Below, one piece after another: positions 1 through 34,267 of a DNA stretch of 64,000 bases. The notes beneath the pieces are model-generated. The model made no database searches. It saw only the letters and a program-made list of their open reading frames with translations, and was not told the origin of the DNA. This stretch comes from Phoronis australis (Eukaryota; Animalia; Phoronida), in assembly GCA_002633005.1 (NCBI GenBank), contig NMRA01000079.1, forward strand, positions 510,102-574,101. Direction: 5' to 3'. The position numbers were made by a program, and so were the translations under genes. Position 1 is the first letter of the stretch, and every line of letters begins with the position of its first letter.

Positions 1-133
1 TAAGCTGGTTTTGTTGTGAGCTCTGTCGCCTCGAGCAGGAACAAAACGTCTTTCACATTAAAGGTAGTCTCCACTGAGCAAGTTCATGCAAGACCTACAA
101 ACTCTTTTAAGAATCGGAAATCTTAAACCAAAC

Positions 134-467
134 CTTTTTGTCCTTCAACTCCTGGAAATCCCTGTGCGCCATTTTTTCCTTTGTTGCCCTGAGGCCCAAT
201 ATTCCCGGCTTCTCCCTTAGAACCAGATTCTCCTTTCTCGCCTTTATCCCCTTTGTCACCACGAAATCCAGTCACTCCCGGAGGCCCGGGAAGCCCGCGA
301 TCCCCCTGGGCGCCACTCTGGCCGACTTTTCCCACCACGCCTTTCTGTCCTTTCGTCCCTGGCAACCCGGTCGCTCCCAATATCCCCGCTAGTCCCTGGG
401 GACCTCTGTCGCCCTTGTCTCCGCGTGACCCCGACGGACCGACATCTCCTTTGGTGCCCGGAAATCC
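134..467 (-). CDS. Collagen exon 21 (last in window)
   Basis: tag|GGA TTT CCG ... CAA AAA G|gtttgg; continuous Gly-X-Y; 334 nt, phase 0 to 1. Confidence 0.9.
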
Positions 468-3400
468 CTAACAAGTGACAAGACTATCAGCATGTATTGC
501 CTACACTGAAATGATATGTCAGTAAATTAATTTCATGTTATATTCAATGTTGAAAAGATGGCCGTTAGATTCTCAGTTGTGAACTATTTCAATGTTGAAC
601 AATTGATAGGCATCACCTTCTTGTATTTCAAAACGTATCCCCACGCTTGACCTAAAACAGAGTGGATTGCATATTGCTTAGACGTATCGTCTAGTACAGA
701 CATAAACTCACTCTCAGCCCTTGGTCACCCTTATCTCCCCGACTACCCTTGGCGCCGGTCAGACCGTCTGCTCCGCGCGCTCCAGTGGCCCCTGTTTTAC
801 CAACACCAGGCGCTCCTGGGTTGCCAACTGGTCCAGGTAGTCCGAGAAATCCACGCTCGCCGTTTGCTCCTGGTAATCCAGTTGCACCAGTTTGACCCTC
901 TGGTCCACTGATGCCGCTCTCTCCAGGTTCACCTTTATCGCCTTTAGATCCACTTGCACCTGTGAAATGAAAGGTAGACACGGTTCTGTCAGTCAAATTC
1001 CTGCATATCTAGGGCCAGTTCATGTTACTGTATACGACAAATAACGGACTTTGATGAAACAAAGATAACATTAGGACACCGTCAGAAACTCATGTCCAAA
1101 ACTTTTGTTGGGGTATTCGTGAAGCAATGTAAGTTGTCATGCACGACACTTACCGCTTTCACCTTTGACACCCGGGAATCCGCGCAGTCCTTGCACACCT
1201 TTCGCCCCACTGGACCCTTTTACGCCCTGTAGTCCTGGCTCACCCTTCCGACCGTTGTTTCCCACCGTGCCTGGAGAGCCTTGGGGACCGGAAATGCCTG
1301 TAAACGCCACCAACGTATTATTAGACAATATAGGCCTTTATAAAAATACAGTATACCCGTATACAAAGCGTGGCCAGGTATCTTATTTTGCTAGCGTAAA
1401 AATCCTTCGGACACAATTTTAGAAATCACTGATTTCACAGGCTGTAAGAATCCCGTCTCACTACAAGAAATTCTAAATGCTCGTTAAAAGAACATGCTCG
1501 CACACTCGTTTTAGTTAGGGTGAACGACAAAATTTTCTTCATCGTCTTCCTTTCACGCTACCTCGTCACTAACCTTGCAAACCCTTCTCTCCTTTATCGC
1601 CTTTTTGTCCCCGAGAACCGCTCTCCCCCTTCACAGAGACACCTGGTGTTCCCTGGATACCAGCGTCACCTGGAAATAAATCATTATCTCACAAGTGGAA
1701 GAAGAAGAAGAAAAAGAAGACGAAAGCTCACCGAATGCCCGATTTTTCGACGTTACAAACGTACCTTTAGTGCCTTTGAGACCCGGCAAGCCGAGTGATC
1801 CTTGATCGCCCTTTGATCCTTTGACTCCTGAGAAACCACGTAGTCCTTGCACACCAGAAGACCCCATTTCTCCTTTAAAAGGGAAAGACAGGCGGTAAGA
1901 GGATCCAAGACAAAGCTTTACCAAAAACGGCTCCAATATCAATGGATGTCCATTTCTAACATTCAAGTTATCTACATTTTGATTCTCCAACAATTTCATA
2001 AGAATTATTACAATGATGTACGACGCTGAGTCTCTTCTTATGACTCAGCATTCCTTCTAGAATTAATGATCTACAGATTCGTAATCTCTCACCTTGATTG
2101 CCCTTCGGACCCTGTATCCCCATCTGTCCCCTACCACCTTTCACGCCCTTTTCTCCTCGAGCTCCCGCAAGGCCTGGCTCTCCCTTCGCTCCAGGCAGCC
2201 CGATACCGATTTCTCCTTTGCCACCTTTTGATCCGGTACTACCCCTAGGACCAACTTGCCCAGGTGTTCCGGTAGCGCCTATGAATCCTCGAGAACCCGA
2301 AGCACCCTGCAGCCCAGGAGGCCCTGTTGACAAAATTTAAGTTCGGCAATGAGAAGAGTAAGTTAGTTATTTTAAAGATTCCGTATTGTTCATGTTCTTT
2401 AGTTCTGTCCTGTTACACATAGCATACTAATGGCCACAATATTTGTTGTTACAGGAAATTCATTTTTAGATACTGCGTACAATTCATTATGTATTTGCTG
2501 GACAATTTTACGTAATGTTGCCAAGAAACTGTCACGTACAGGCATCTTTCCGTGTGCGCATTACGGTGGACGAAAACTTAATAAGATATACTAGGCTTGT
2601 ATATATTTTTAAACAGTTGACTGTTTTGATTAATACGGGCTCAATTCTTTCAAACTCTCTGCAGAACGGCCGATGTTCAAGGGACAGGTTTTACGGAAGT
2701 TCGCAAATCATCGCCATCAACCTATATCAAGTGAAGCTAAAGTTCTCTATCTGTCTGAACAAGACCGCAAAACTCACCCCGTTCGCCCTTCGGTCCACGC
2801 GGGCCAGCAACTCCGGAAGCGCCTCTTGCTCCAGGGGCGCCAAGCGCGCCCTTCTGCCCAACGATGCTCGAACCAGCGTCTCCTTTGTTTCCCTTCGTTC
2901 CCTGTATCCCCTTGGCTCCAGACGCCCCCTTTTCACCGCGAATACCATCAACACCTGGCAAGCCTCGCTCACCCTGAACTCCACGCTGTCCGGTTGCCCC
3001 TGACTGACCATCTGTGCCGGATTCTCCTGCATAGGGGGACTTTATATAGCAAGGTGGTGACTGAAGATGGACTGGAAACTGACGTCTCCAGAGGACTACT
3101 AGGCAATTTCACATTTTTTCAAAAACGTATCACGTCTGATCAAGATCTTTTTCACGAAGACAAAATTAATACGTTTCCTCAGGCAACCCGCTGTCAATAA
3201 AAGGTACAGCCGGCAGACGGCGACAAGAGTCACCCATGTATCCAATTCTTGATGGGATAAACCTTTACCCTTTAAAAGGACGTTGTCGTTTTCAAGATCG
3301 ACAACCGCATTTTCGGAGATTTTTGTTGAATGGGATACACTTTTTAAAGTACAGAGCTATAAAACTGTAAAGTCGGTTATCTTTTTGTGACTTTATTACA

Positions 3401-6400
3401 AATGTTGTCTGTCAGACATTCACTGAAATCAAGACCGGTGACGTCGCCAGCTAAGTAAGCTTAGAATACGCCTCCATTTGTCGAGTAGGGTGTAAGTACG
3501 CCAGTAGAGCGTGAAGGATCAAGATGTGAATTTGCGCTGGGGCTAATCTCAGAAAACCTCTTTCATCGATGATAACGTCACTTTAAAGGTTGAAGCTATC
3601 GTTTCACGTGATCTAACTGTCAAAGTTCTATTCTACAATAAATTGAATCCAATTATCGAATCAAAAACGTCCCGTGATATATTATATCACGCACGTGTCA
3701 TCGAAATTGCGTGGATATTTTTCAACCATTTGCATTCAGCTATTTTGTCGCCCTTTTTGGTCAAGTTTACGTCTCGTGTTTCTTTCAGTCCCTTATCTTG
3801 TGAATACGTGACCGAGGAAACGCCATGAAACACTAACAATATAAGAATATTTGAAATATATGTAAAGGACTGTACCCACGCCAGCGGGAAGTCTGATCTT
3901 CACCCCTGGCGGTGCAGTAAAATCGGTTCCACTTCAAGCATGTGAACTGAGTCAAGCAGAAAGTATGGGGATCTTCGTTTAACGCGAGTCTCACGTGAAG
4001 CTCTGGATGCGGCTCTGAACTAAGCTCCTCATGTACCCCTTATTGAAAGGCACTGGGGCCTGTTCTGGCATGCGTGATACAAATGGGTATTATGGAACTG
4101 GTAAAGAGACTTGCCCTAATTAATGACCCGAAGACGTATGGAAAGGCTCTGATGTTAACATATATTACTGGTCTCGCGGAATTTACAAGCTACGGAAAGT
4201 CGTTCCGAAAGTCTTAGTCGAGACTTTCTCCAAATTTCTAATTTTCACGAGGACTGCGATAACATTTTATGAATCAAAACAGATAACTAGAAGTCTATAA
4301 TGCTATTTAAGAGTACCGACCGGTGCCAACAAGTCCTACCTTTCATTCCCTTAGGGCCACGCAAGCCTGTCAAGCCACGTGCACCGCTGGCACCTGGTGT
4401 ACCTTTTGTCCCAGGAAGCCCCATTGGTCCGGTGGATCCCTTTTCACCCTTAGGTCCACTTTCGCCTCGGTCCCCTTTCACTCCAGTGGAACCTGAAAGT
4501 GAAGATTTTTGTCGTTGGATGGGAATTGATATACTTCTTAGTTTTGTACAAGAACTGTTGCTAAGCGACCAAAGTAGGTGCCAAACGACCAGATAGTATT
4601 CTGCAATTATATCACCGCCGAATTTCACGCGAGATATATTTCACACGTTGAAGAGGCCTAGAACGCGATAAACAGATTAAATTGCAATATTTAAAGTGGT
4701 TCTCTGCCACTGAAACCGAATTCAAGCTGCTCACTAGGTTTTTTTAGGGTTTCAAAGCCTTTTCTTTTAGTTTCAGATTTCAAAAAACGATCTGTCAACT
4801 GCTCGCCACTTCGTCGAGTACTACTCCTTATTTGGTACGGTAATACGTATTATTATTCTATTTATTAATGTAATTTTTACAATGAAGGTAGCCCCATCAG
4901 TTCACACTGCTTTCCATGGCGGCCTTCAGTAAAAACACACAGAGACAGGAAGACAAACAAACAGACGTATCACATTTCCCTTATATGGGAAACCTGTCCT
5001 TTTACATCAAGTGACTTCAAGCAACTGACTGAGCGCATGGGTGCATTAATGATAAGTGGGAGGGACATGAGAAACTCTGTGGTAACCACAGTTTTTCCTT
5101 CTCGGGTATTTCAGAAATCGTGAATTGTGTATTTTTTTCTTGAAATTTCCTCCCAGTGGAAAGTGAATTACTCAACTAGACGTTACCAGATTGTACTTTC
5201 GCCAGGGATTGTTTAAAAGATGTTTTGACGAATTTTCGAGTTCCATGCCTCTTTTAACTTAAGCCCAAGGACAGTTGACTGAAAAGAAGTGGTATAGACA
5301 GCTCTTTATTCCAGTGTCAATGGGCGGGTCCTAGTTTTGTGAACAACGAACTTCTAATCATTAACCTATACCGCAACTTTGCAGGTGCACGTCAACTAAC
5401 TTACCAACTCCTTTAGACCCGCTGGCGCCTGGGACTCCACGCTCGCCTTTCTCTCCCGGCATGCCCTGTAGGCCTGTCAATCCTGTTGCGCCCTTTTCTC
5501 CTTTGGCACCGTTACTTCCAGGAGATCCCGGCAAGCCTCGAGCTCCGGTCGATCCAGCCGGTCCCGTGGAACCATCTTTACCAGGAGTTCCGGGTAGACC
5601 ACGCACTCCTGAAGCTCCTTCGACGCCGATGTTTCCCTGATCCAAGAAGTCAGTTCACACAAATTTGATCATTGTGCTGATGGTAGTCAGGCCAATTTTT
5701 GCCTCATTAAGCAGCATTTAGTTTTATGATTTTATGTTCGTTCCTATCTCTCAGTCCACACTAATTACAATATACTAGACCCTACATTAAAACATCTCAC
5801 CTTATCTCCTTTCAGCCCAGGAACACCTTGATGACCCTTCTCGCCAGGAAACCCTCTATCCCCCATCGAACCCTGTACTCCAGTATAACCTTTGTCGCCT
5901 TTTTGACCTGCGAGTCCTTTTTCTCCCGATGCTCCCTTCACCCCGGGAGTTCCGGGTGATCCCGGGAGACCGTGATCGCCTTTTGATCCCGGAACACCAC
6001 TGGCACCCTGAACGCCTCTTGCTCCTGTCTTGCCGGGTGCGCCTGTCAGACCTTGAACGCCAGTTTGGCCAGTTTCTCCCTTAGCTCCTTTTGTTCCAGG
6101 GATACCAACACCTCCAGTGTTACCTTGTATCCCAGGTAAACCGGTAGAGCCTGGAACGCCTTTTTCGCCTTGTGAGCCCTTGGGCCCAGCGACACCAATT
6201 TGACCCGGCGGCCCGTCTGCACCCTGTTCGCCCTTCGATCCTGGAAATCCCGGACTGCCGGGCGGGCCTGAAGCGCCTTGCAACCCTTTTTGTCCTTGGG
6301 AACCTGTTTGCCCATGAATACCAGGATTTCCGGGAAGTCCTGGTGATCCTACGCTTCCCTTTAGACCCTGGGCTCCTTCCGTTCCAGGCAATCCTGGTTG

Positions 6401-9400
6401 TCCAGCGTCTCCACGCAAGCCTTTCTCTCCACGGTCACCCTTCATTCCAGGAACCCCTGGCAATCCGGGTGAGCCTTCCTGACCGGCCGTCCCCTGCACT
6501 CCAGTCTCTCCCGTCAACCCCTGGACGCCAGGGAATCCCTGTTCCCCGGGTAGACCCGGAGAACCAACCTCTCCTTTGGCACCTGTAGTTCCCTGCAACC
6601 CTGGTAGACCTCGAGCACCGGAAGTTCCTGGCAATCCAGGCAACCCGTTTGCTACCCGCTCGCCTTTTTGTCCGTTTGTGCCTGGCAGTCCCGCTGTTCC
6701 TTGTAACCCCCTTTCTCCCTTAGTCCCAGGTACGCCCGGTAAACCAGGAGACCCGTTGGGCCCTGTAATCCCCTGCGCTCCTCGATCCCCCTTCATTCCT
6801 TGAGGGCCAGTCACACCTGTCGGTCCTTGAAGTCCAGACAAACCTTGCTGACCCGGCAAACCTATGGAACCTTGCGCTCCTTTTGCACCGGGATTCCCCG
6901 TCAAACCTGGCTGTCCTTGAGCACCCTTTGTGCCGTTCAACCCAGGAAATCCAGATATTCCTGGGGTACCAGGTAATCCCATAGACCCTATTGGTCCAGT
7001 TACGCCTGTCGCCCCTGGAAATCCTTGCTGTCCTAATAACAGAAAAGGTTTTGTTTGACACATTCAAGAGTGGTCATATACTTTTAAAGTAATATGTAGC
7101 CGCAAGATAGGGCACAATTAATTCCGGCTTCAAGGAGTTTAATTGGTCGACGTCGCTATTGCAACAGCAATTGTAGCCAGACATACAGCTAATTTCATCC
7201 TCAAACAAAAAATACTCTGTAGGAATTAATTGATTCCAGAAATAACATGTCATATTTTTAAAGAACTGTGGCAGAACTATTTCTTGTCAGGAGAACTTTG
7301 TCTAAAACAGTTCGCTGTGTTACCTTGGACGCCTCGCTGACCGGGTTCTCCTTTCGTTCCTGTCTGCCCCGGTGCCCCTGGGGGACCTCTTACGCCTGTA
7401 GATCCATTGAACCCTCTTGGGCCTAGTTGACCTGTTGGTCCGGTCGTTCCTGGCGAACCTGGCAGTCCTGGAGAACCAACCTGCCCGGTGATCCCACGTG
7501 ACCCAGTTTCACCTCGGGATCCAGGGAGTCCCGCTACCCCCTTCTCGCCGGTTTGTCCGGGTGGGCCTGGTGTGCCTGAATCGTGCATTTGATTTCTATG
7601 AAACATTCCTGTACCACTAAAGCGCGAAACGTAGAACGTGCAAAGCTTGCGATTGTCGTGATTAGCATAGTTCAATAATTCTTCAAAGGAAAATTTACCA
7701 TCACTGAGATCAAGACACTTAATAACATATGTAATCAATCACACCCTCTATAAATTAATTCCGTTGTTGTAGTGCACTCGAAATGCTTTACTTTGCATCT
7801 TACCCGGCGTTCCTTTAGCGCCCGTCTGACCCGGCGTTCCGGGAGTACCCGGTAACCCGGGCGTACCGCGAGATCCTGTGGTCCCCGGAGGACCGGCAGG
7901 TCCTGCAACACCGGGAGGCCCAACTACACCAGTCTCACCCCGAGCGCCACGTAGTCCCTGCACTCCTCGCTGACCTGTCTCTCCAGGTTCGCCCTTTGTT
8001 CCCGGTGTCCCGGGGAGACCTCTGTCCCCAGTTGACCCAGTTGCGCCTCTGGGCCCAGGTAACCCTGCGAAGACAAATGCAGAGAACAGACATGTCTCTT
8101 ATTTTGCAATTTATCATTGAGTAACATTGCATAAATATTCGTATAGACCTCATTGACAATCGACGCACTGGCGAATCAAATATGGAGTGGTCTTGCAAGT
8201 ACAATTTCCGAACCGCAAGTCTTTTAGTCTTCTCAGGAGGGGAGGCCCCTATCCCCTGGGCTCCTATCAATCCAGCCATATGACGTCATGCATCAAACAA
8301 ACTTACTGATTGAAAAACTTCTGGAAATTTTATGCAAACCTGTTCGGCCACCGACTTAACGTGGGACAGTGAATTCTCTTCACGATCCCAATGTACCTGC
8401 TGATCCTTGTGCGCCTGTTCTTCCGACTGGTCCAGTAAATCCACGTGATCCAGGGATGCCAGCAATGCCAGGCGAGCCTTGAGGACCTGTTGGAACATGG
8501 AAGCACAACCATCAAACTCATTATAATGACTCATGCGTTCACATTGCTGATGCCTTTGCTGGAGCTGTGCAGCGTCCGGCAAGACTTTTAGTTTTACTTT
8601 CCTCTCATGTGATACGAAGTGACGTGAGACAATCACGTTAGGGCGGCTCTATTCGATCTTTTACTCAATAAAAAAAAAACATTTTCGTGGATAAATGCCT
8701 GCTGCAAACATGTCACACGTGAATGTAATTTCATCTAGTTAGACACGAACTTGAAACATCACCTGCTTAATTAAACGGGCATTTTGAAGCTGTTTATAGC
8801 TTTCTATGTTTAATTCAAATCATCCATTCGATTTTGAATTATTCCCGAATGAGCCGGCAACTCACGTCACAGGCACACCCCACATGAGAAATTGTCGAAT
8901 TCGAAATTTTAGGGTTGGTTAACCCCAATAAATCCTTAAATGTTTTGTTGAGTTAGTGATGGTTTCGATGTTCTTGCCGATAACGGAAATAGAATCCCGT
9001 CGCGGTACTGAATAATACGCGACAGATTTTAGAAGAGTAAAGAGCTCAATGCAATTTTGGTTTTTAGCCAGCTGAAGAGAAATGCTGTTTTAAGATGCGA
9101 CTTTCTTCGACATTTGTTTTATATTCAGTCTCCAATTTAAGCTTACCCGTCGGACCTGGGGGTCCACCAGCGCTACCTTTGGGACCAGTTGCACCCACGG
9201 CGCCTTGTAAACCTGGGAGACCCGGAGGTCCAGGCGGGCCAGCGGGGCCCGAGGGACCCACCAGTCGAGTCGGTCCTTGGAATGTATCACCCGTTACGCC
9301 TGCATACAATGGATAAAACGTTAAGATTACCAGTAGTGTCGGGTATATTTGACACTCTCCTTATTCTTAATTAAGACTTAACTTCACTATAGGGGCACAT

Positions 9401-12400
9401 CAGTAGCCGGATCAGTACTGAAATCCGCTTGTGCCATCCTATTCGAAATGGAAGCACGTTTACAAAATTTCATGAGCATCCACCCGGGGGTTTGGTGATA
9501 CAGCAACGGACGCCGGACGGATGGACAGACGCCAAAATGCGTAACAGTTTAACTTCGATTAATCGAACTCAATCCAAGTGCACACTCAAGACTGCTAGAA
9601 ACCGTTTTACTCACATGGGTTGATGTTAACTCCAAATGACAGTTGCCAATCTTTGGTGGACTTTCCAAACGCGTAAATTTGGCGAATAACAGGAAATGAT
9701 TGTGCGTCAATCGTCCGCGCGTACAGCCTGTATCCAACCTTTGGTGTGTAACTGATGGCCAAATGTCGGGCTTCCAAGGTGAAACCCACGCGTCCGCCAC
9801 TTGGAATTGCGCTGTGGTTTCGATGGACAAGAAACTGTAACAATATATGTGTCGTTTCTTCTAGTGACAGGGTACTGTATTCGAGTTTGCAAACCTAACC
9901 TTAGATAACATACGCTTGGCGCAAAATGTTGCGTTACAAAATGCCATGAAGTAGATGGTGCGTTAAGAAAAATTGCACATGTGTACATATATGCATATTA
10001 TACACGTGTACATATATGCATATTATACATGTGGACATGTATGCATTTTATACACGTGTACATGTATGCATATTATACATGTGTAAATATATGCATATTA
10101 TACATGTGTACATATGCGCATATTATACATGTGTCCATATATGTCGTTTAAACATAGACAACTTAATTATGAAGAATGTTACGTGGCAATTACTCCAGTT
10201 TTATAACCCATTTGAACATTTCCATATTTTTCAATATTTTGAAAATATAACATTTTATGTTTGCAGGGAATGTCATGGTTGCTACTGTAAGAACAGATTT
10301 GCAACAAACCCGAGGTCCCCGCGTTTTCGCACGCAAAATTTGCTACTTCACACTTGAAAAAAGTTGAAAATAGTCGAAAGCGCTAAAAGTGTTCGTGCTT
10401 CAAAACTTCCTCATGCAACGGCGAAATTTTTTGACATTTTTTTGGAAAACTAGATTTCTGGTGACAAATGCAATTTTAAAACAAAGCACGACCTGCCTTG
10501 AAATACATACGTGACTACATAATTGTGATACTTAGTAGTGGGGTACACGACGAACAAGGGCGATTTTCATTAATCAAGGGTTGCACAATTGCGGAGTTTA
10601 TTTGTAAACTATAAGCACAGACTATATACCACATGGACCGCCAACTCTATATATTCCCAACGCGCAAAATCAGTCGGTGATATTGCACACAAGCCGCGAC
10701 CACCGCGACGGCAACATTCGTTAGCGCCGCCTGGTGTTATGCCCGTTTTAGGTCCTATGAGCCACGTCGTCTGCTTACTAACGGTATGTAAGACCCCAGA
10801 AAAATGACCAAATTAATATGGTTACCTTTGAAACATCAGTTATCAGATACGATGCTTTATTCATTGTTCTCCAAAACACCGTTAGGCATTTTTTAAAAAT
10901 GTTCCACTTTTGCATGACGACGTTTCATGAAAACATTCAAAAGTTGCATATGGCGAATACGAAGTGATAGCACTTATATCAGACGAAAATTGGACATTAT
11001 ATTGACGTTTTTTGTTTCTAACTATACCGGTACCTTTCTTTTGCTATATTTTGCTATATTGTGCTAACTTATGGTTACGACATCCTGTTGGGTATAGTTT
11101 GGTACAAAATCACCAATAAAATACTGTTTTTTTTCAGAATTAAGTTTTGTAATTTTGCAGATAATTGGCTAAATACACAGCCTTGTCTGGATGAAATTAA
11201 CCGGAAGCCGAGCTGTGCATCGGAAGAGAGTGGGGCCTCCTCTAGGAATTCCATAAGGACATCACTGAGCTGCGAATCTGTTGTGTAAGATCTGTGACAT
11301 GAGCGAGAAGCAACTTTTGTACCTTGTGCAACCCGATGGAAGCTGGAACCACCGCAATCTCCTCCAACATCAGTTGGAACTGTGGCGCGTGAAGGACGTC
11401 GTAAACTATAGGGTACCAGATTTGCAGTCGAATGGGGTACTGAAAAACAAAACGTCGGGCCAAAACGTTCGAGAAAGAGCGATATACACTACGCTCCTTC
11501 TAATTCATTTGAATTCTCACAATTTTTCTTCATTTCCAAATTGAGGAATGAGAGATGAAACTATTAAAACTGAATGACTGCAATCAAAGAGTACTACCAC
11601 CGCTTATTGAAATTAAAACAAATGTTACAAAAGGAATTTGTCTCGTAAAGCAGACGACATTGTGTGAATTAACACGAACAGGGCAATACGACTTTGGGAC
11701 TATTTTTGCGGTGGAATAAAACTTGCATAGACTGCAAATCAAACACAGGAACTGCCGTGATCATGCGCATTAGTCTCATTTGAAGATTTAGCTTATTACT
11801 AACAGATTGCTGTAGGTTGTCGTGGTTATATAGCTCGAAACTGTGGACGCGACCGCCTGGCAAGTCGTAGGTGTAATCAACTAAGGACATCAGCCCGCCG
11901 ACGTCAGTGTTCCACGCGTCTCGTTTTTCCACGAGATTGCCGTAGTAAACTTCATTGCCTGCAAGAAGAGAGACAACAGTGGCTAAAAAATACAATCTGA
12001 CTTTTGTGTAAAGTATTGGCACAAACTTCCTTAGACTTTCGTGTCACTTTTTGGGTGAAATCAACGGTTAGGAACTATAAACCAGCTATACTGTTCTAAC
12101 AAAAAAAACTAATTTTTGATTCAGTCCCCTACGGTTAGGAAACAGTGTCCGATTCTTCCTTAATTATATTAAAATTAGTTTCTGGAATTGAGAACGACTC
12201 ACAATACGACCAGTCAAGTTAACTAGTTTGAGCCAGGCCTCGCCAATGATCAGTGCCCAGTATGTTTGGTATACGGCGGATTTAAGAAACAAAACANTAC
12301 GTGACTACATAATTGTGATACTTAGTGGTGGGGCACACGACGAACAAGGGCGATTTTTATTAATCAAGGGTTGCACAATTGCGCAGGTTATTTGTAAACT

Positions 12401-15400
12401 ATAAGCATAGACTATATACAACATGGACCGCCAACTCTATATATTCCCAACGCGCAAAATCAGTCGGTGATATTGCACACAAGCCGCGACCACCGCGACG
12501 GCAACAATCACTAGCGCCGTTATGCATGTTTTAGGTCCTATGAGTCACGTCGTCTGCTCACTAACGGTATGTAAGACCCTAGAAAATTGACCAAACATGG
12601 TTACCTTTGGAACATCATTTATCAGATACGATGCTTTATTCATTGTTCTCCAAAACACCGTTAGGCATTTTTTAAAAATGTTCCACTTTTGCATGACGAC
12701 GTTTTATGAAAACATTCAAAAGTTGCAAATGGCGAATACGAAGTGATAGCACTTATATCAGACGAAAATTAGCCATGATATTGATGTTTTTTGTTTATGA
12801 CTATACCGGTACCTTTCTTTTTGCTATATTTTGCTATATTTTGCTATATTTTGGTAACTTAAGGTTACGACATCCTGGTGGGTATAGTTTGGTACAAAGT
12901 CACCAATGAAATACTACAGTTTTTTTCTTTCAGAAAGTATGTACTTTCACGGAATTAAGTAATTTTGTAATTTTGTAATTTTGTAATTTTGCACATATTT
13001 GGCTAAATACACTGCCTTGTCTGGATAAAATTAACCGGAAGCCGAGCTGTGCATCGGAAGAGAGTGGGGGCTCCTCTAGGAATTACATAAGGACATCTCT
13101 GAGCTACGAATCTGTTGTGTAAGATCTGTGACATGAGAGAGAAGTAACTTGTGTACCTTGTGCAGCCCGATGGAAGCTGGAACCACCGCAATCTCCTCCA
13201 ACATCAGTTGGAACTGTGGCGCGTGCAGGGCGTCGTAAACTATAGGGTACCAGATTTGCAGTCGGATGGGGTACTGAAAAAAAGAACGCCGTGGTAAGTG
13301 GCCAAAACGTTCGAGAAAGAGCGATATACACTACGCTCCTTCTAATTCATTTAAATTCTCACAATTTTTCTTCATTTCCAAATTGAGGAATGAGAGATGA
13401 AACTATGAAAACTGAATGACTACAATCAAAGTGTACTACTACCACTTATTAAAATTAAAACAAACGTTACAAAAGGAATTGGTCTCGTAAAGCAGACGAC
13501 ATTGTGTGAATTAACACGAACAGGGCAATACGACTTTGGGACTATTTTTGCGGTGGAATAAAACTTGCATAGACTGCAAATCAAACACAGGAACTGCCGT
13601 GATCATGCGCATTAGTCTCATTTGAAGATTTAGCTTATTACTAACAGATTGCTGTAGGTTGTCGTGGTTATATAGCTCGAAACTGTGGACGCGACCGCCT
13701 GGCAAGTCGTAGGTGTAATCAACTAAGGACATCAGCCCGCCGACGTCAGTGTTCCACGCGTCTCGTTTTTCCACGAGATTGCCGTAGTAAACTTCATTGC
13801 CTGCAAGAAGAGAGACAACAGTGGCTAAAAAATACAATCTGACTTTTGTGTAAAGTATTGGCACAAACTTCCTTAGACTTTCGTGTCACTTTTTGGGTGA
13901 AATCAACGGTTAGGAACTATAAACCAGCTATACTGTTCTAACAAAAAAAACTAATTTTTGATTCAGTCCCCTACGGTTAGGAAACAGTGTCCGATTCTTC
14001 CTTAATTATATTAAAATTAGTTTCTGGAATTGAGAACGACTCACAATACGACCAGTCAAGTTAACTAGTTTGAGCCAGGCCTCGCCAATGATCAGTGCCC
14101 AGTATGTTTGGTATACGGCGGATTTAAGAAACAAAACAGCATTCGTCCCAAAATTTAATTCTTGTTAAACAATTGAGGATGTACATAGACCTTATAAATA
14201 GGAGTTTGCTTTTTGACAGATTAGAGCGTACATGCTTCAACATCGACTCCAATAGAATGATTCCAGTTGCGATTCTCTGTAAAAGTATATGCCTTCTGCA
14301 CGGTGGGTGCATCTGCCTCGTTGAAAATGTAGGTGTGCATTACGTATCCGGGTGAAACGTGATAGGAGAGTGGGTCGATCTTCTGGGTAGTAGTGAAGCC
14401 CATGAGGCTGCCCTTCACGATGTAGACGCTTGTTGGCACTTCAAACTATAAAGCGACGTACATGTAGGATTACAAGAATCAAGCCGTAATTAGGGTGTGT
14501 TTAGGAGCACTCGATGCCATCTCTGTGCCTTCTTGTCTTGTTGACTACAGCAGGAATTGAAGCTAGATACGATTTTACCAGTTTTTACAAAGTCTTTAAA
14601 TGTTGTCAATAATTACATGCACAAAACGCAATTTGCAAAATAGGCTGTCTTACGACCAAGGCTATTCTGGGGACACTGATTAAGTTTTCATGGACTAGAA
14701 TGCAAGGACACACGGCTTTGGGGATTTTTAATTGGATCAAAAATCACTATTAGCTTCAATACATCACATGAAAAAGTCTTTGTAATGTAAATTTGAACAG
14801 TCTTATTTGACAAACTCGGGTCCGGTAACTTAAAGATCTTTAATGAAACAAGAGTCCAGGTTTACGCCAGTGGAAGGTATTTGTTAGACTCACTCACCGT
14901 TTGGATTTGATTGACAGGTTGGAGAGCGGCTAGTATTTCAAACACCAGCTGTAGGCGTGGTTTATCCAATGTGTGATAGGCAATGGGATACCAGATTTGA
15001 AATTTCAGATCAGTCTAAAATGATATGACAATAAATCATAGGAAAAAAAGTAATCCAAAAACAATAATTAATAACAAGTCAATCAGTGCAAATAGTCGTT
15101 TATATTACAATGAATGAATTCAAACTGTCTTTCCGATAGTATTTCACCTAAAAAAATTTTGTACAACGGAAACTGACCATTCATTCCCACAGTTCAACAT
15201 TCCAAAATCTTCGACCAACTACTTCAGTAACCGCCATTTTGCCAAGATAGTCTATTAAGCATACTCGTGAATTTGCGAGGTCTTGCTTTTCTCGCGAACT
15301 AGGTCCACCGCACGTTCCCCTGAATACAGCTTCTGCCTCATACCTGTGCGTTTAAATCTTGGGCGAAAACGTGAAACCGACGCAGTCTCCCATCTGGTAA

Positions 15401-15884
15401 CTCGTGCATGCCGTCTACGAACGACTGCAAGAAGCCGATGTCGGTCTGGCCCGAACTGCGCCGCGTCAGCGGGTTACCATAGAACTGAACTTGGCCTACA
15501 AGAAAAAAAGGGGTTGGCCAAAAAACGGACGGTCTATTCTCGCAACGAAGAACACTTTAAAACCAAAACATGTTGATGAAATACAATTTCAGGATTGTAA
15601 GATCGATAGAATTTGCATAAACGACAAGATCCCGCCTGCGCCGGATGGCAGCATCGTTGGGACTAATTTCTGTTGCCGTCAGGTGGCACAACACCAAAGC
15701 ACCATTCGAAAAACACCGAACAGCTGGAAACAATTGAAATGAACCTATTATGAAAACGAAATTTCTCATGTAACTGCAATGCACAAAAAGCTGTGGTTAG
15801 TGTAATTACCAAAAAGACCTCACCTTGGACTACCTGTAGTGACACTAGTAAGAAAAAGAAGAGAAACGCAGACTGGCGGGTCAT
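134..15884 (-). CDS. Large secreted non-fibrillar collagen-like gene, 21 coding exons in window, 3' end beyond window start
   Basis: Hand-spliced GT-AG exons in transcript order: 15884-15824, 15495-15344, 15014-14898, 14445-14232, 11958-11804 (or duplicate 13800-13646), 11439-11323 (or 13273-13157), 9834-9615, 9299-9147, 8486-8397, 8064-7804, 7575-7324, 7032-5801, 5636-5405, 4492-4340, 3026-2778, 2323-2093, 1872-1765, 1669-1574, 1297-1154, 959-712, 467-134. All intron phases are compatible, giving 4819 nt of open frame (~1606 aa): signal peptide, two globular repeats, then >1250 aa Gly-X-Y. Confidence 0.9.
712..959 (-). CDS. Collagen exon 20
   Basis: cag|GT GCA AGT ... CTG AGA|gtgagt; Gly-X-Y; 248 nt. 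Confidence 0.9.
1154..1297 (-). CDS. Collagen exon 19
   Basis: cag|GC ATT TCC ... AGC G|gtaagt; 144 nt Gly-X-Y. Confidence 0.9.
1574..1669 (-). CDS. Collagen exon 18
   Basis: cag|GT GAC GCT ... CAA G|gttagt; 96 nt; contains GVSVKG interruption. Confidence 0.88.
1765..1872 (-). CDS. Collagen exon 17
   Basis: aag|GA GAA ATG ... AAA G|gtacgt; 108 nt Gly-X-Y. Confidence 0.88.
2093..2323 (-). CDS. Collagen exon 16
   Basis: cag|GG CCT CCT ... CAA G|gtgaga; 231 nt; GIG interruption. Confidence 0.9.
2778..3026 (-). CDS. Collagen exon 15
   Basis: cag|GA GAA TCC ... CGG G|gtgagt; 249 nt; GSSIVG interruption. Confidence 0.9.
4340..4492 (-). CDS. Collagen exon 14
   Basis: cag|GT TCC ACT ... AAA G|gtagga; 153 nt. 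Confidence 0.9.
5405..5636 (-). CDS. Collagen exon 13
   Basis: cag|GGA AAC ATC ... GTT G|gtaagt; 232 nt. Confidence 0.9.
5801..7032 (-). CDS. Collagen exon 12 (1232-nt exon)
   Basis: tag|GA CAG CAA ... GAT AAG|gtgaga; ~410 aa Gly-X-Y within ORF 5765..7063. Confidence 0.93.
7324..7575 (-). CDS. Collagen exon 11
   Basis: cag|GC ACA CCA ... CAA G|gtaaca; 252 nt. Confidence 0.9.
7804..8064 (-). CDS. Collagen exon 10
   Basis: cag|GG TTA CCT ... CCG G|gtaaga; 261 nt. Confidence 0.9.
8397..8486 (-). CDS. Collagen exon 9
   Basis: cag|GT CCT CAA GGC ... GCA G|gtacat; 90 nt, ten Gly-X-Y triplets; not shown in this frame in the ORF track. Confidence 0.88.
9147..9299 (-). CDS. Collagen exon 8 (start of triple-helical region)
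   Basis: cag|GC GTA ACG ... ACG G|gtaagc; (C)[26 protein letters not shown]...; 153 nt. Confidence 0.88.
9615..9834 (-). CDS. Collagen gene exon 7 (globular repeat 2, part C)
   Basis: cag|TTT CTT GTC ... CCA T|gtgagt; [19 protein letters not shown]...[11 protein letters not shown](C); homologous to exon 14232-14445. Confidence 0.85.
9978..10143. repeat. 25-bp minisatellite (catgtgtacatatatgcatattata) x ~6.6
   Basis: Direct tandem copies with few substitutions; intronic. Confidence 0.9.
11323..11439 (-). CDS. Collagen gene exon 6 (globular repeat 2, part B)
   Basis: cag|TAC CCC ATT ... CAC AAG|gtacaa; [39 protein letters not shown]; 117 nt. Confidence 0.85.
11804..11958 (-). CDS. Collagen gene exon 5 (globular repeat 2, part A)
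   Basis: cag|GC AAT GAA ... CAA TCT|gttagt; (C)[51 protein letters not shown]; 155 nt. Confidence 0.85.
13157..13273 (-). CDS. Duplicate or allelic copy of exon 6 (V>A variant)
   Basis: Same splice sites, 117 nt, within the 1.8-kb duplication. Confidence 0.6.
13646..13800 (-). CDS. Duplicate copy of exon 5 (identical)
   Basis: ORF 13511..13864 is identical to 11669..12022. Confidence 0.6.
14232..14445 (-). CDS. Collagen gene exon 4 (globular repeat 1, part C)
   Basis: tag|TTT GAA GTG ... GCA T|gtacgc; [18 protein letters not shown]...[11 protein letters not shown](C); 214 nt. Confidence 0.85.
14898..15014 (-). CDS. Collagen gene exon 3 (globular repeat 1, part B)
   Basis: tag|ACT GAT CTG ... 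CAA ACG|gtgagt; [39 protein letters not shown]; 117 nt, same length as exon 6. Confidence 0.85.
15344..15495 (-). CDS. Collagen gene exon 2 (globular repeat 1, part A)
   Basis: tag|GC CAA GTT ... GCA CAG|gtatga; [50 protein letters not shown]; 152 nt. Confidence 0.85.
15824..15884 (-). CDS. Collagen gene first coding exon (signal peptide)
   Basis: [20 protein letters not shown](G)|gtgagg: basic N-terminus, hydrophobic core, VQG cleavage. An acceptor at 15914-15915 implies an upstream non-coding exon. Confidence 0.85.
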
Positions 15885-20978: not shown

Positions 20979-23383
20979 GCATGCCAAGATCCTGAAGAGT
21001 TTTGCCTTGCTGACCCACTAGTCCACACAGACGTCAGGGCAGAGTTCAGTAATTCTAGGACGTCGTTAGGACCTCGCTAAAAATAAGACTTCGCGAGATT
21101 ACGCGAGATATTGGCATGTTTTCCATAAGAGCACGTGATTTTATTGGCCAGATTTTTCACGCCGCGAGACAGCTACTGACTCTATACCCATGTGAGTAAG
21201 ATCTGTACTGGTTTGGACATTAAATTTGCGACAGTCATGCGTAAATTATCCTGTAAAAACCCGCGACGGGAAAACGCGAGTGTTTGCGTTGTCCGCATTC
21301 ATTCGACTGGAGTGTTCTCATTAACGAGTGCTGTTTTCGCTGAGTTTTGAGTTCTGTGTTTTTATCTACGTACTTTAGTTTTGTTGTCTCATTTCATCTA
21401 GTATATCATCTGGGTTAGCCGAGTTGCGTATAGCCTCATTCCTAGCTGACAGGAAAATACCAGGAAGTGGTTTATTGAGCTATCGCTTGTCTGGTTTGTG
21501 GATTTTAGCTTAATAGGCCTACTCAGTTTGTTGCTGCTGCTCCTGTTGTTGTTGTTGTTTTGTTATTATTGTTGTTGTTGCGTAGTACGTGTTGTGGTAG
21601 TGTTTAGGATTTAAAGTACGTGATATGGCCCTTTCTGTTTTGTAGACCCTATGTTGTGACGAAGTACCATGCCCGTCAATCCTCCGTCCATGGTAACCGA
21701 AAACATCGTGTTTANNNNNNNNNNNNNNNNTAAATTTTTTAACTTAAAAGTTCACCTGATTAATAGTGCCTGAAGTTACTTTCCTAATTGTCTGTGGCAG
21801 CCGATCCTAGCTCATGTACAGAGTGTTGGCTGCTGTGACGCTGCTGTTGTGATGAAGTGACATTCAGTTCAGTCAGATGAAAACTAAATGCGGTGTTTTC
21901 AACCTGATTCTGAGTCAAGTCACTGGATTCTTTTTCCACCCTCAGCAGGACTACTGACTCATTGTTGTTGACCCAACGCTGGTATGTGATAAAAAGCGGA
22001 AGTTTATGTCGTTCCAGTTTAGCTGTACCGCTAAGGGCTTAGCCACCATACGTGGCTATATGTGAGCGCGTAGGGACCACGTAGTAGTTAACTTTTCTGT
22101 GTGAACACTTGATAAGTCGTGTAGAGACTGGAAACTCCTCTGAGAATCAGAGTGACGGACTGTCGGTTGTTATCACTAACATTGTTACCACTCACAATTA
22201 CGGACAAAAGCATTGGTTGAGATCGAGTTGTGACTGACCTCAAAGACCGGCTGCTGTATTTGTATATTTTATAAGTAAAACCAGCGGCGAGCAGATAGTG
22301 TTTTATTTCTGCACCGTTGCTTTGAAAATTTTGTCTTTCACGAATGTAAAATACGTATGTTTCGGCTAAGTAGGCTACACAACTGCCACTAGATCACGTT
22401 ATTTCAAAGTCAAAAGGTGAATCACGATAACCGCACTTAATCTGTCGTGACTTGTCAACATCAAATTGTGTGACATGGTTTGAGCGTCCTAGTTACGCCC
22501 GTGGCCTTATAATTTATGCGCGTCAGTAGTTAGGCCACGAACCTACGCGTTTAGCTAGAGGCTCGTTTCCATTGGTAAGTAATATAAGTATAAAGCGAAA
22601 TGTATAATAGGTCTACTTTTTGATTTTATATCATTTTCTGAATAAATAAGAGAAGTCCGTAACGTGTAAATGCGTAATCCGCACTGCGTTTATTTGAAAC
22701 GGATTGTGTAATCGATTGTCTGCGCGTAATGGATACGGAACTCCGACATGGAGTCAAAATGGCAACTACATGTACATGTACCTGTCTTCCGCCCATGGCA
22801 AAGGACAAGGCTGTCCTTCCCTAAGAATAAAATCTTCTCACAACGTCATCTACGTGCACGTGTCCTTTGCCCCCTGGAAATAATTGAGAGTTACAGTAAT
22901 TCACACTATTTTCACTCATGATTTGATCGTGGACACGTTAAGTTAACTTGCTGATTTTTTAAAAGCTGGCTCATGGAAACATGAAAACGCATTGGTTATG
23001 GCAAGGAGTATATCGCTCATCACGCATTGCATTACGCACTGACTGAAAAAAACACGGATTTTTGCACAAGTGTTTGAGATGTAGACGTATGCTCACGTGC
23101 GGGCACAGACAGCTGGCCTCTGTATATAAACGCACAGGTCTCAGGTGGCCCTCTGTGTGTCTATTGTGTCGTTTAGATAACTTCCAATTACTATTTCGTT
23201 ATGAGCCCACACATACACGTGATCCGAAAATGTTCGCGAAAATATTCTAGTTTTGTAATATTTTTAGACTCCTAATACACGTTAGTTTAATTATATATCA
23301 ATTGATTTCCACGAAAGTTAACTCTCACGAGCACGGAAATTAAGTATTTTTTTGGAATTGCAGATAATTAAAGCAAGTCGGGG

Positions 23384-23590
23384 ATGAATGAAGATGACAA
23401 GATTCGACTGCGGGTGAACCGCCGTGATATTGTGGAAAACGTACAAACTGAAGAGATATGTCATCGCTTGATAGCTGAGGGTATACTTAATGAAGATGAC
23501 GATGAGAGGATTAGAGCGGAGAAAACATCGAGAGACAAAGCAGCTGCGTTGTTGAATATGTTGCCGAAGAAGGGACCAAATGCTTATAAG
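23384..23590 (+). CDS. Paralog 1 exon 1, CARD N-terminal part
   Basis: 69 codons ending TAT AAG|gttttg; resembles caspase-9/RAIDD-type CARDs. Confidence 0.88.
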
Positions 23591-26500
23591 GTTTTGAACT
23601 TGTTTACGCCGTTTTATTCAGTGAATATTGATTTAATTATATGATGGCTTTTGAATTATAAAATCTCCTGGTTTGGAACGTTTTTAAATTTGAAATGTGA
23701 GAGGTTGTCTGAGAAATACTCTCCAAATATGGGATTTGGGTCGCGACGGTTGATTTTGAATATACCACAATCGTAGTGTTCTTCTCCAACAGGAGCGGTC
23801 TCCAGGAGGAACATAAATATTGTATTGATGATCCTACATTGGCTTTTTTGACAAAATGGCTCTTAAGTGTAGTGCAGTTTGGATGAAAAATAGTACTTTA
23901 TTTGGTCTGTCTGTGTTAAAGCCTCCGATCCGTAACCAAAACACAGACATCAAATGTACTTGTATAACTAAAGTAAGAAAGGAGATTCGATACCTAAAAA
24001 TGAACACGAAAAGGGACTACTTTCTTCAGTGACGTGGCATAACCAAGCAAGATAAATCACAATTAGATAAGTGAAAAAGCGCTTCAGTCTACAACTAGGA
24101 ATAATAATGCGAAATTGAAATTTTTGTAGAGTTATTTAATTTTCAAATTGGTTTTAACATTTACAGGCTAGGACCTGGCGTCTACTTATTTTTGTCATTT
24201 TCAATCGTATTTTTGAGCGAACACAGGATGTGTGTCTATTATTTTATCCTCGAGTACGCAATGGCTTACGGGGCTAACTGTCTAATCCTAATTTGCACTG
24301 GATGACCCAGCGTTAACGTTAAAAGTTCGAGTTTGAACTCGAAATCTCGATTTTTTCTCGAAGGGGTTGCTCCAATCTGGGGGGTCATCAAGTTCGAACT
24401 AGGACTAGAAAATCGTATGCTTAAACCATACTGTGCTCGAGCACATGTTAATAGAAACCTATCTTGAGTAGTTGCAAAAAGTAGAACGATTTGCCAAAAA
24501 TATTTTCGACTTACATTTCGAGCACAAAGGTTAGACCTCAATCCCTGGTTGTTTATATACCCGACCCTATTTCTCCTTGGGTGCAAGTCAAAATCCCATT
24601 GCTCTTATATGACAACACACAGAGTAATCGATGTTTTGATAGGGGCGTGTATACTTGAAGATCTGAGATGCCCAACCGGTCACTTGGTTTCCCCCACTGG
24701 CATTATCTCCCCTGTCATTTTCGCTCAACATTCACCCACGGGAGCCATCACTGCAGATGTAGAGACATATTTATGTAAAGATTTCAAAAATTGTTCCCAA
24801 ACGTAGACTGTTCTGAAACTTTATCTGAAGTTTAAATTATTAAAAATGACCCCGCTAGTGTAGTCCTAGCCTTCTCTCAAAATATTGGACCACAATGAAT
24901 TTTTTTCACTCAAAAGTAACCTTTCTAGCGGCATTTCCTCTTTGTATTCATTGCCGAAATAAGTACATCTGGGAAACATAAGGCGCGCCCCGTAAACCAA
25001 GTGTCTGGCCTAAATACCAAGATCACACAAGACCACGCAAGTGAAAGGCGAGTGATTCACGCTGAGTATCGCGAGAATGCTCGAGACCCTGTATGCTTTA
25101 AAGACCCTCTAACGTGGTTGTTTTCGGTAACATCAAAGTGTGTACTCTGGTAAACAAGTTACAGTAACTCAATACTGTTGTAGCGTAACCCAGACAAACG
25201 GCGGTGATTGGTCGGTGAGGTTGGAAAGTTGCATCATGGGAGAATTCTTTATGACCTGATGGCCTTCGATTCTACGAGAACAGATTTTCGCCACTAGAGC
25301 GTGACTAATGACCTTTATACGAGGGTCTAATTCGACTCCGCAGTTAACTAAACGGACCAGTAGATAATTTTTTAGTTGCGTGCATCTCGACCCCAATAAT
25401 TATTTTGGACTGTGTTTAATTCTCGTTTTTCGTCATGGTTTCAGACGTTCCGTGATGGCTTACAACAGGATCCAGTATATGAATGGATCATTAAGAAATT
25501 AGACGAAACAGATGTCTCCGGTGAGAAGTGGTGTTATGCATAAGTGGCAAAAAAAAACGAAAAAAGACAGCAAATTACTGCAGTAATATCGCTTATATTC
25601 TTCAAGTGGGACTGTTCAATTTGATAGAAAGATTGAAAAGTTTGCCATTTGGTCTTTGATTTGAGACAAAAACAAGTCAGGTTTTCTTATGAAAACATCA
25701 CGAATTTGCGTTACGTAATGATAAGAATTCTCATGTATTCGAATATGTGGACATTATACATTACTTTTGAATGATCACCCGTCTATGATACACTTGCAAG
25801 TTGTTTGGGTCAGGTTCTGTCACATTTACCTAATTAGAGTCAAACTCAGCAACGGATGTCAAAATCACGATTCTAGTGTTGGTACAGCATAGGCAGATTT
25901 TTTTTGGGGGGGGGGGGGTGNCATCGGAATGCTGACTGTCCCTCCTTACGGTACCCTAGATCCGCCAGCGTTGTACAGTAATGCATGGCCAGTTTTACAT
26001 TTAGTAATGTATGGCTGTCGTGAATATTACATGTATCAACATTAGTGTGACATTTGGACCTTGTAAGTCGACCATTCAAACTTTCGTGTGATTTCTTTTT
26101 AGGGATTGAACACCAAGGGAAACCTCAGCAAAGTTCTTCAGGCGAGACAAGTGATAACCTGTCTCGCATCACGAAGTCACTCACAGATCAAAACTGCGAC
26201 ATTATGAAGAACAACAAAACGATGCTGGAATGTTTGAGTTCGCCCACAGCCCCTGTTCACATCGTTAAAAACGCTGAGCCTAAAAGCACGCCAAAATATA
26301 GAATTAAAATAACTCTTGTCGGACGTTCATTTTCTGGCAAAACACGTCTTTTAGATTACCTGAAAAACAATCGCTTCAACGAATCATTGGATGACACCAC
26401 CACCTGCGGAGTCTCTTTTCAGTTGAAGGTGATGCCGACTAATTTGGGGGATGCAAGACTTGAATTGTGGGATACAGCTGGTCAAGAAACATTTATGGAG

Positions 26501-26881
26501 GTGTCGAAATCCATAGCCAGGCACTCTCGCTGTGTTGTCATTGTCATAGACGTTACTAAAAAAGACAGTTTGGATGTTGCATTAACCTGGTATAATATCT
26601 GCAAAGAATTGGGCATACACTATTGCGTTTTCATGTGTAATAAAATTGACTTGACAGAACGTGTGGAGCTAGACAGGGAAACCATAGAGAATGCCATTGG
26701 TGATAACCCGTGCTTCTGGGTCTCTGCAAAGACCGGTGAGAACGTGAATTACGCATTTTCTATGACTGGACTTGGTGCAGTCGTCCGTTCTAGCGCGGAG
26801 GTTGAATCTACGCTGGTTCAAAGTCGGATGAACTTAAACTTGCCTGAAAGAGAAAGAAGACGGTTCTGCATCATTTTATGA
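23384..26881 (+). CDS. CARD-Rab-like small GTPase fusion with CaaX box, paralog 1 (~353 aa)
   Basis: Exons 23384-23590, 25445-25520, 26103-26881 with GT-AG sites and compatible phases (0,1). CARD signature (LxxNRxDIVEN..., RIRAEKT..DKA..LL.MLPKKGPNAY..F...L). G1 GRSFSGKT, G3 WDTAGQE, G4 NKID, G5 SAK; C-terminus RRRFCIIL. Confidence 0.88.
25445..25520 (+). CDS. Paralog 1 exon 2, CARD C-terminal helices
   Basis: tcag|ACG TTC ... TCC G|gtgaga; TFRDGLQQDPVYEWIIKKLDETDVS; homologous exon at 35649-35724. Confidence 0.85.
26103..26881 (+). CDS. Paralog 1 exon 3, linker + Rab-like GTPase + CaaX
   Basis: tttag|GG ATT GAA; complete G1-G5 motifs; CIIL-stop. Confidence 0.92.
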
Positions 26882-28441: not shown

Positions 28442-30111
28442 TTATGCGCCCACATATTATATGTGGGTGCATATTGCTGTCATCTCTGTTTGGGCATCCG
28501 GCGTCCGCGACTGTATCTCCTAAACCCCTTGCAGGATCTTATTGAAATTTGGCAGGTGTGGGGTTGACGACAGAGGGCGACGAGTTTCGGACCGACCCGA
28601 ATACCCCTGTGCCCCCTAGTGACAATTTTAGTTTTTTCGTTTTCCTCTGTATCTTGAAAGGTCCTCAACCGATTTTCATGAAATTTGGCACATAGGCATC
28701 TATTAATGAGGTGACGCTATCCTTTCGTTTTCGGATGGATTTGAGGTATTTTGCACCATCTAGTGGCCATTTTTGTTGTTTACGAGTCTGTTGTTTTGGC
28801 GTCCATCCCTCCATCAATCAAACCGCTCAAAGAATGATTACGAAAATTGTCATGTATGTTCTTACTATGAAGTGGACGGCTGACGATGGTTTTCCGACGA
28901 CTTCAACTACTTTGGCGCCTCCTAGTGGCAATTTTGTTTTTTTGCTCCTATGGCGGTATCTCCTAAACAGGATCTTTACTAAATTTATTAAGTGTATTTA
29001 TATGATGTTAGTAACGCAGGACGACGACTTTTGTACAGATCTGACTATTGGTGTGCCACCTAGTGGCGATTTTATTTTTTTACGTTTACCTCTGTATCTT
29101 CAAGAGTCCTCAACGTATTTTCATAGAATTTGGCATACAGGCATCTGCTAATGAGATGACGCTATCTCTCCATTTTCAGACAGATTTGACCTAGTTTGCG
29201 CCACCTAGTGGCCATTTTTACTGTTTTCGAGTCTGTTTTTCGGCGTCCATTCGTCTATCAACCAAACCGCTTTCATGATAATTGTGAAAATTGGCATGTA
29301 TGTTTTAACTATGAAGTGGACGGCTGACGATCATATTCCGGCGACTTCGCGGACTACTGTGGCGCCGCCTTCTGGTATTTTTTTGCGCTCATGGTTGTAT
29401 TTTCTTAACAGTTTGCAGGATCTTTACTTAATTTAGCAGGGGTATTTATATGATGTTCACAACGGACAACGACGACTTTCAGAAGGATCTGACCACTGGT
29501 GTGCCCCCAAGTGGCAATTTTAGGTTTTTACGTTTACATTTGTATCTTCAAAGGTCCTCAACAGATTTTCATAAAATTTTGAATATGAGGCATCTATTGA
29601 AGAGATTACGCTTTGCTCCTGTTTTGGGATGGAATCGAGATATTTTGCGCCACATAGTGGCCATTTTTGGTCTTTTCAAACCCTGGTTTTGGCGTCCACC
29701 TCTCTGTCAACCAATTTTTTTTCTGGTTTTGAAAATTAAAATGTTCTCAGTGTGAAGAGGTGAAGAGTTTGATGATGGCGACTGACCACTGTGACGCCTC
29801 CTAGTAGTAGTTTTGTGTTGTTTCGCGCCCATAGCTGTATTAAGATAACAACAGACCACGACGACTTTCAGGCGGATCCAACGGATTCTGTGCCCATTAG
29901 TGGCAAATTCATTTTATTCTGTTTTCCATTGTCTCTCTGAAGTTCCTTGACAGATTTTTATGAATTATGGCATGTTCCCATTTTTTGGATGGATTGTACG
30001 TTTTTACGCCATCTAGTGGCCATTTTTATGATACAAATAAGTAACCCTCGAAAAGCACACCATCTGCAATGCATTCGTGGGCGTATTTCAACGCTTCGCG
30101 TTGCTCTTGTT
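28442..30111 (+). mobile_element. Helentron-associated (HINE/DINE-1-like) non-autonomous element with internal ~440-bp tandem units
   Basis: 5' ttatgcgcccaca...tgtgggtgcata fold-back; catccg/cgtccg microsatellite; units marked by gtgcc..ctagtggcaattt at ~28609, 29052, 29501, 29890; 3' gtgggcgtat + stem-loop caacgc-ttc-gcgttg + ctcttgtt. Confidence 0.7.
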
Positions 30112-34060: not shown

Positions 34061-34267
34061 ATGAATGAAGGTGACAAGATTCGACTGCGGGTGAACCGCC
34101 GTGATATTGTGGAAAACGTACAAACTGAAGAGATATGTCATCGCTTGATAGCTGAGGGTATACTTAATGAAGATGACGATGAGAGGATTAGAGCGGAGAA
34201 AACATCGAGAGACAAAGCAGCTACGCTGTTGAATATGTTGCCGAAGAAGGGACCAAATGCTTATAAG
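34061..34267 (+). CDS. Paralog 2 exon 1, CARD N-terminal part
   Basis: 3 nt differences from 23384-23590; AAG|gttttt donor. Confidence 0.88.

Follow-up and report, generated by a model that had tools for sequence, protein, structure and literature searches.

What kind of globular domain opens the chain of a very long invertebrate collagen, and what might it do there? The question is raised by a 64,000-nucleotide (nt) stretch of the Phoronis australis genome (contig NMRA01000079.1, positions 510,102 to 574,101; hereafter the window, whose own numbering is used throughout), on the minus strand of which lies a collagen gene composed of a signal-peptide exon, two three-exon cassettes and a run of Gly-X-Y exons. 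It is by their non-collagenous ends that collagen types are told apart, and matrisome catalogues, which draw on named domains, miss any domain family that has no name. Here, we show that the gene is expressed and spliced from the third exon of the first cassette as far as the Gly-X-Y exons and, by sequence comparison, that the two cassettes encode a domain of about 160 residues from an unnamed family with relatives in other organisms. Combining sequence, structural models and analogy, we propose with a probability of roughly 0.5 that the product is a secreted-type collagen chain carrying an N-terminal double jelly-roll binding head.

Gene structure

The first coding exon (15824..15884; 61 nt, or 20 codons plus 1 nt, ending in phase 1) starts with the ATG at 15884, downstream of an in-frame stop, and encodes a hydrophobic stretch with a peak hydropathy of 3.2; it is predicted, by hydropathy only, to be a signal peptide, and its joint to the first cassette is a prediction as well. 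Cassette 1 consists of exon A1 (15344..15495; 152 nt, phase 1 to 0), exon B1 with a QIW motif (14898..15014; 117 nt, phase 0 to 0) and exon C1 (14232..14445; 214 nt, phase 0 to 1), and cassette 2 of exon A2 (11804..11958; 155 nt, phase 1 to 0), exon B2, again with QIW (11323..11439; 117 nt, phase 0 to 0), and exon C2 (9615..9834; 220 nt, phase 0 to 1). All six are bounded by AG/GT, and their positions, lengths and shared phase pattern of 1-0-0-1 are exactly those proposed in an earlier note on this DNA. Collagen exon 1 (9147..9299) encodes a 14-residue linker and then the Pro-rich start of the Gly-X-Y region at amino acid (aa) 360, and collagen exons 2-14 occupy 134..8486. In silico splicing from the ATG gives an open frame of 1606 codons with 0 stops, which ends at the last predicted donor (position 134). 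The only cysteines in these 1606 residues, Cys182 and Cys346, are each formed from the junction codon at the splice site that closes a cassette.

Repeat 1 (aa 22-182) and repeat 2 (aa 183-346) are identical at 49 of 155 aligned residues and score 215 against 29 ± 5 in 2000 shuffles (maximum 61), which bears out the homology that the earlier note had claimed for the two cassettes. No third copy of the domain was found elsewhere in the window (best other E 0.065). A 25-bp tandem repeat array lies at 9947-10179, inside the B2/C2 intron.

The Gly-X-Y region comprises at least 408 triplets with 7 interruptions, amounting to 1247 residues within the window, and runs past the window end; the gene presumably continues beyond position 1. 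The description of the collagen as "very long" thus holds as a lower bound, the end of the gene lying outside the window. Proline occupies 9.8% of X and 23.0% of Y positions, and lysine and threonine 18.4% and 12.5% of Y positions; proline makes up 19% of the first 150 residues of the helix but 4-9% of its distal half. This is part of a wider gradient along the helix (134-9299, minus strand), in which proline and threonine are high N-terminally while lysine and acidic residues rise towards the C-terminal end. The region also contains 4 RGD and 15 KGD triplet motifs.

RNA evidence for splicing

Four RNA-read runs of one species label (X1-X4) were aligned to positions 1-12296, and two of them to 9100-12296. 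These ranges cover the joints from C1/A2 onward, the three upstream ones (signal exon/A1, A1/B1 and B1/C1) resting on prediction. In X1 and X2, reads fall on the exons with their first mates on the plus strand, as expected of RNA from the minus strand; X3 has almost no reads on the exons, and contigs of X4 match intronic repeats only. The A2/B2 joint is seen in 17 reads, the B2/C2 joint in 12 and the joint from C2 to collagen exon 1, a skip of 315 nt, in 5 (3 + 2). At the start of A2, 13 loose-end reads (7 + 6, agreement 1.0) match the 3' end of C1, and loose ends likewise lead from collagen exon 1 into collagen exon 2 (3 + 3 reads). Within collagen exons 2-14, 10 of the 12 introns appear as joints, the donor at 134 being predicted only. 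In total, RNA supports 14 of the 16 introns predicted for positions 1-12296. Joints in the alignment to this longer range account for 12 (among the 15 of 23 listed), the C2/collagen exon 1 joint for one and the loose ends between collagen exons 1 and 2 for another; the two without support both sit between Gly-X-Y exons. Taken together, the joints and loose ends make C1-A2-B2-C2-collagen one spliced chain. The splicing of the cassettes to the Gly-X-Y exons, on which the earlier note had staked its reading, is thereby supported from exon C1 onward.

A tandem duplicate in the assembly

Exons A2 and B2 lie in a segment, 10508-12296, that recurs at 12298-14138 with 1719 of 1778 aligned bases identical (96.7%), a single N at 12297 joining the two copies; the earlier note did not mention it. 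The second copy holds A2x (13800-13646), which shows 0 differences from A2 in 155 nt, and B2x (13273-13157), which differs from B2 at 4 of 117 nt, one change altering a residue. The last ~650 bases of the 1.8-kb repeat are identical between the copies and the remainder differs by about 5%. At the four differing sites of B2 the RNA carries the B2x letter at two, the B2 letter at one and a third letter at one, together with one private variant, a mixture of both copies, as expected if the RNA came from other individuals polymorphic at a single locus. A chain A2x-B2x-A2-B2, representing a third partial repeat, was rejected: it contains 5 stops when both are spliced, no back-joint is listed, and the loose ends agree fully with C1. 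Most likely, the segment 10508-14138 represents two haplotypes placed in tandem in the assembly, a recent real duplication being less probable. The copy would mislead gene predictors into doubling or breaking exons A2 and B2. The same assembly signature is found at a second near-duplicate (93%), 36320-37125 and 39323-40148, the latter directly after a single N at 39322.

An unnamed domain family

Does the domain occur elsewhere? A HMMER search of 1.84 billion representative proteins, with a profile built from exons C1 and C2, gave 20 matches, of which 11 were dropped as repeat proteins summing many weak stretches. The other nine (P0004, P0005, P0009, P0012, P0013, P0014, P0015, P0017 and P0020) are single-stretch relatives with the same motifs, and none carries a name. 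The most informative is P0004 (461 aa; encoded without introns at L001:216-1601), which joins a signal peptide to a single copy of the domain, a stretch of 19 Gly-X-Y triplets and EGF-like repeats recognised by Pfam; a hydrophobic segment near its end, judged by eye, suggests that it is probably membrane-bound and receptor-like. Its domain is identical to repeat 2 at 55 of 139 residues (40%) and to repeat 1 at 36 of 139. The resemblance extends to the A and B halves, which were outside the query (scores of 87 and 61 against 24 ± 4 and 23 ± 4; profile comparison E 6e-5). The other eight relatives resemble single exons called as genes, and a genomic fragment from another animal (L002) holds an exon C of 223 nt, phase 0 to 1, with boundaries as in the window. 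Five residues (G289, T291, P320, F328 and S338) are invariant in 12 aligned rows, and QIW is present in 5 of 5; motifs of this type, which the earlier note placed in uncharacterised invertebrate secreted proteins, indeed occur in P0004, P0015 and P0017.

Further searches delimit the family. None of the 30 nearest ESM Atlas clusters has a common Pfam family. The three listed, with scores of 0.91-0.92, are eukaryotic, with Porifera, Porifera and Annelida as their commonest groups and 2-8 recorded members. A range from sponges to annelids, drawn from these unaligned look-alikes, is a lead. Porin-like matches obtained in the ESM Atlas with exon C2 alone came at low recognition and were rejected. 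Word-index protein searches found no relatives among 23 candidates for exon C2 and 95 for the pair of A exons, and a search with alignment A5 among proteins of 273-2000 aa returned P0004 only. Prokaryote genomes, viral contigs and phage records yielded no relatives.

The domain libraries searched provide no name. Pfam gave nothing significant for the six window exons (best E 0.029), and for the intact P0004 domain nothing significant was found in Pfam, NCBIfam (0 matches), PHROGs (only E ≥ 0.2) or PDB sequences, the PDB sequence searches giving nothing at E < 0.1. The Pfam models for VWA, VWC, TSPN/LamG, C1q, COLFI, FN3 and C-type lectin had 0 matches in either the six exons or the P0004 domain, and the domain lacks the Cys pattern of VWC and CTLD. 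The earlier note would have yielded to a described collagen-associated domain; Pfam contains none that matches. There was equally no Pfam match to PHR (PF08005), PF18560 or DUF4082 (PF13313), and PHR was not among the three weak families returned at E ≤ 10 for seven members of A5. No published description of the domain was found in a literature search that did not reach most subscription journals and supplements.

Predicted fold

The model of the P0004 domain is all-beta, at low confidence (predicted local distance difference test, pLDDT, of 56), and its structural neighbours are jelly rolls, which agrees with the β-sandwich anticipated in the earlier note. Both this model and the protein-language-model search point, with middling scores, to the jelly rolls of PHR and of the Cwp84 "lectin-like" domain, while a single-sequence model (pLDDT 49) matched only generic jelly rolls. 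We consider a PHR-like jelly roll the likely fold of the domain. Foldseek against predicted viral structures gave one unnamed match at E 2e-4 and several phage tail or collagen-repeat proteins above 1e-3, which were not relied on. Within the domain, an LPxG-strand in exon A is echoed by an IPxG-strand in exon C (seen in A2 and C2), strongly enough to mislead an aligner, and this echo suggests a two-fold pseudo-symmetry of the sandwich.

For the poorest model, TNF-family ligands topped the Foldseek list (E ≥ 0.02), which raises the possibility that the domains are chain-selection or trimerisation modules like the C1q/TNF or BclA heads, registering the chains and starting N-terminal folding of the helix. 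The position of the domain directly before Gly-X-Y in both architectures (about 2 residues away in P0004), the Pro-rich start of the helix, the Cys that closes each repeat, and the 19-triplet helix of P0004, which probably needs a trimeriser, would all suit such a role. The TNF and C1q matches, however, faded with the better model, and we regard this explanation as doubtful. A trimer prediction with three copies of the P0004 domain, with the alignment not used, scored 0.00 and is evidence neither way.

A probable mobile module and its proposed role

The domain is flanked by phase-1 introns at both ends, occurs in two architectures (the window gene and P0004) and keeps its exon-C boundaries in L002, with one example of each, which fits the earlier view of a mobile module. 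The three-exon cassette was probably duplicated in tandem and shuffled between proteins. A triple helix rises by 0.286 nm per residue, and three chains would form an interrupted triple helix of at least about 350 nm (1224 triplet residues × 0.286 nm) with six jelly rolls clustered at the N-terminal end of the rod. Such a cluster could anchor the rod by binding avidly to a partner in the matrix or on the cell surface, for which a glycan or glycoprotein is the most likely candidate. Inter-chain disulfides could form through the one Cys that follows each repeat.

What argues for a binding head? The heads of collectins and ficolins act in this way on collagen stalks, and by analogy we give the same function to the domain here at even odds or slightly less. 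It is favoured because the P0004 domain tips a stalked, probably membrane-bound protein, because the ESM Atlas neighbours are of single-domain size, and because binding or accessory modules make up the structural neighbours. P0004 also bears on a second explanation, namely that the head drives end-to-end or lateral self-assembly into a network or cuticle-type fibre cross-linked via Cys182 and Cys346, like the 7S and NC1 regions of collagen IV. In its interrupted, Lys-rich helix (Lys 18% of Y) and in the phase-1 position of most of its introns, this gene is similar to network collagens; the annelid cuticle collagens described in PMC11766948 also join globular domains to a very long helix. Yet P0004 carries the domain on a short stalk, in a probably membrane-bound protein without these Cys, and of three RNA-read runs, X3 shows hardly any expression of the gene. 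Self-assembly as the role of the head appears unlikely to us.

In a third explanation, the two domains would act as a propeptide, holding the collagen in solution until they are cleaved off on secretion. This could draw on the basic motifs RR (32), RLRR (57) and KR (193) in the N-terminal part and on an Arg at 194 that all 3 whole domains share. All these motifs lie inside the domains, however, with none in the linker before the helix, and RLRR is kept in neither repeat 2 nor P0004, making a propeptide very improbable.

The binding head may belong to a wider picture, which we put forward as a tentative possibility. The domain would then be the founding member of a branch of the PHR / Cwp84-lectin-like jelly rolls that is extracellular and has so far gone undescribed. 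Shuffled as a three-exon module and spread from sponges to annelids, this branch would provide a new class of collagen head, acting as recognition domain on stalked receptors such as P0004 and forming the globule at the tip of very long matrix or cuticle collagens of invertebrates. The domain caps collagens in at least two architectures, and sponges and annelids have look-alike clusters that likewise lack a name. Should it prove to be a PHR-like jelly roll, it would connect the animal matrix with a fold known from inside animal cells and with the surface-binding modules of bacteria and phages, and would offer a small, expressible handle on the anchoring and assembly of long invertebrate collagens. 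Nonetheless, unnamed invertebrate extracellular β-sandwiches are common, the fold is already known and the function is only proposed.

Other features of the window

Two open reading frames of the Rab/Ras family, at 26051-26881 and 41070-41831 on the plus strand (Pfam Ras E 9e-24 and 3e-29), share 160 of 250 residues, have their GTPase domain in one exon and each lie near a ~445-bp repeat array (28442-29840 and 40256-41058); the pair looks like a local segmental duplication. A CARD-domain exon at 23372-23644 (plus strand; Pfam E 2e-14) has a 93% identical copy at 34058-34317. A broken retroelement of the long interspersed nuclear element type spans 60129-63624 on the minus strand in several frames, one piece matching RVT_1 (E 4e-19).

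Comparison with known domains and collagens

The domain is 7-8% identical to PHR (PF08005; PDB 3hwj, 3gbw and 3no8). PHR proteins are intracellular parts of ubiquitin ligases, whereas the domain here follows a signal peptide and precedes a collagen. Identity to the Cwp84 lectin-like domain (PF18560; PDB 4ci7) is 11%; that domain is bacterial or archaeal, packs on a papain-type protease and binds calcium (PMC4089489). The carbohydrate-binding-module-like domain of FjoAcXE-type esterases (PDB 7tog and 7tok; 4-8% identity) is a bacterial enzyme accessory domain that contacts the sugar in concert with the catalytic domain. DUF4082, of similar length and mostly bacterial or phage, is a named ESM Atlas lead at 0.84; its absence from the solved-structure matches excludes nothing.

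Fibrillar collagen exons are built of 54-bp units in phase 0, in contrast to the 14 collagen exons of 90-1232 nt found here, with 11 of 13 internal ends in phase 1. The uninterrupted helix of about 1000 residues described for fibrillar collagen (PMC3308698) also differs from the one in the window, with its 7 interruptions in 1247 residues. By helix and exon pattern, the collagen is of a non-fibrillar type. The interrupted helix is shared with collagen IV, in which a Cys-containing 7S segment directly follows the signal peptide; here, two globular domains, together 325 residues long, lie ahead of the helix, and Cys182 and Cys346 are the only cysteines. Globular ends and a very long helix also characterise the annelid giant cuticle collagens (PMC11766948), which have a length of 7700-8860 aa (up to 8859), and the ESM Atlas neighbours of our domain include an annelid-dominated cluster. 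Proline takes up 33-40% of X in these collagens (PMC12403961), compared with which the visible part of the present chain is shorter and Pro-poorer, its Pro content being closer to the siboglinid rows of the table in PMC12403961.

Collectins, ficolins and C1q carry C-terminal CTLD, fibrinogen or C1q heads on short collagen stalks. They share with the proposed molecule a collagen stalk that brings together at least three globular, beta-rich heads of one kind, whereas the head described here is N-terminal, doubled and unnamed, and would sit on a rod of more than 1200 residues.

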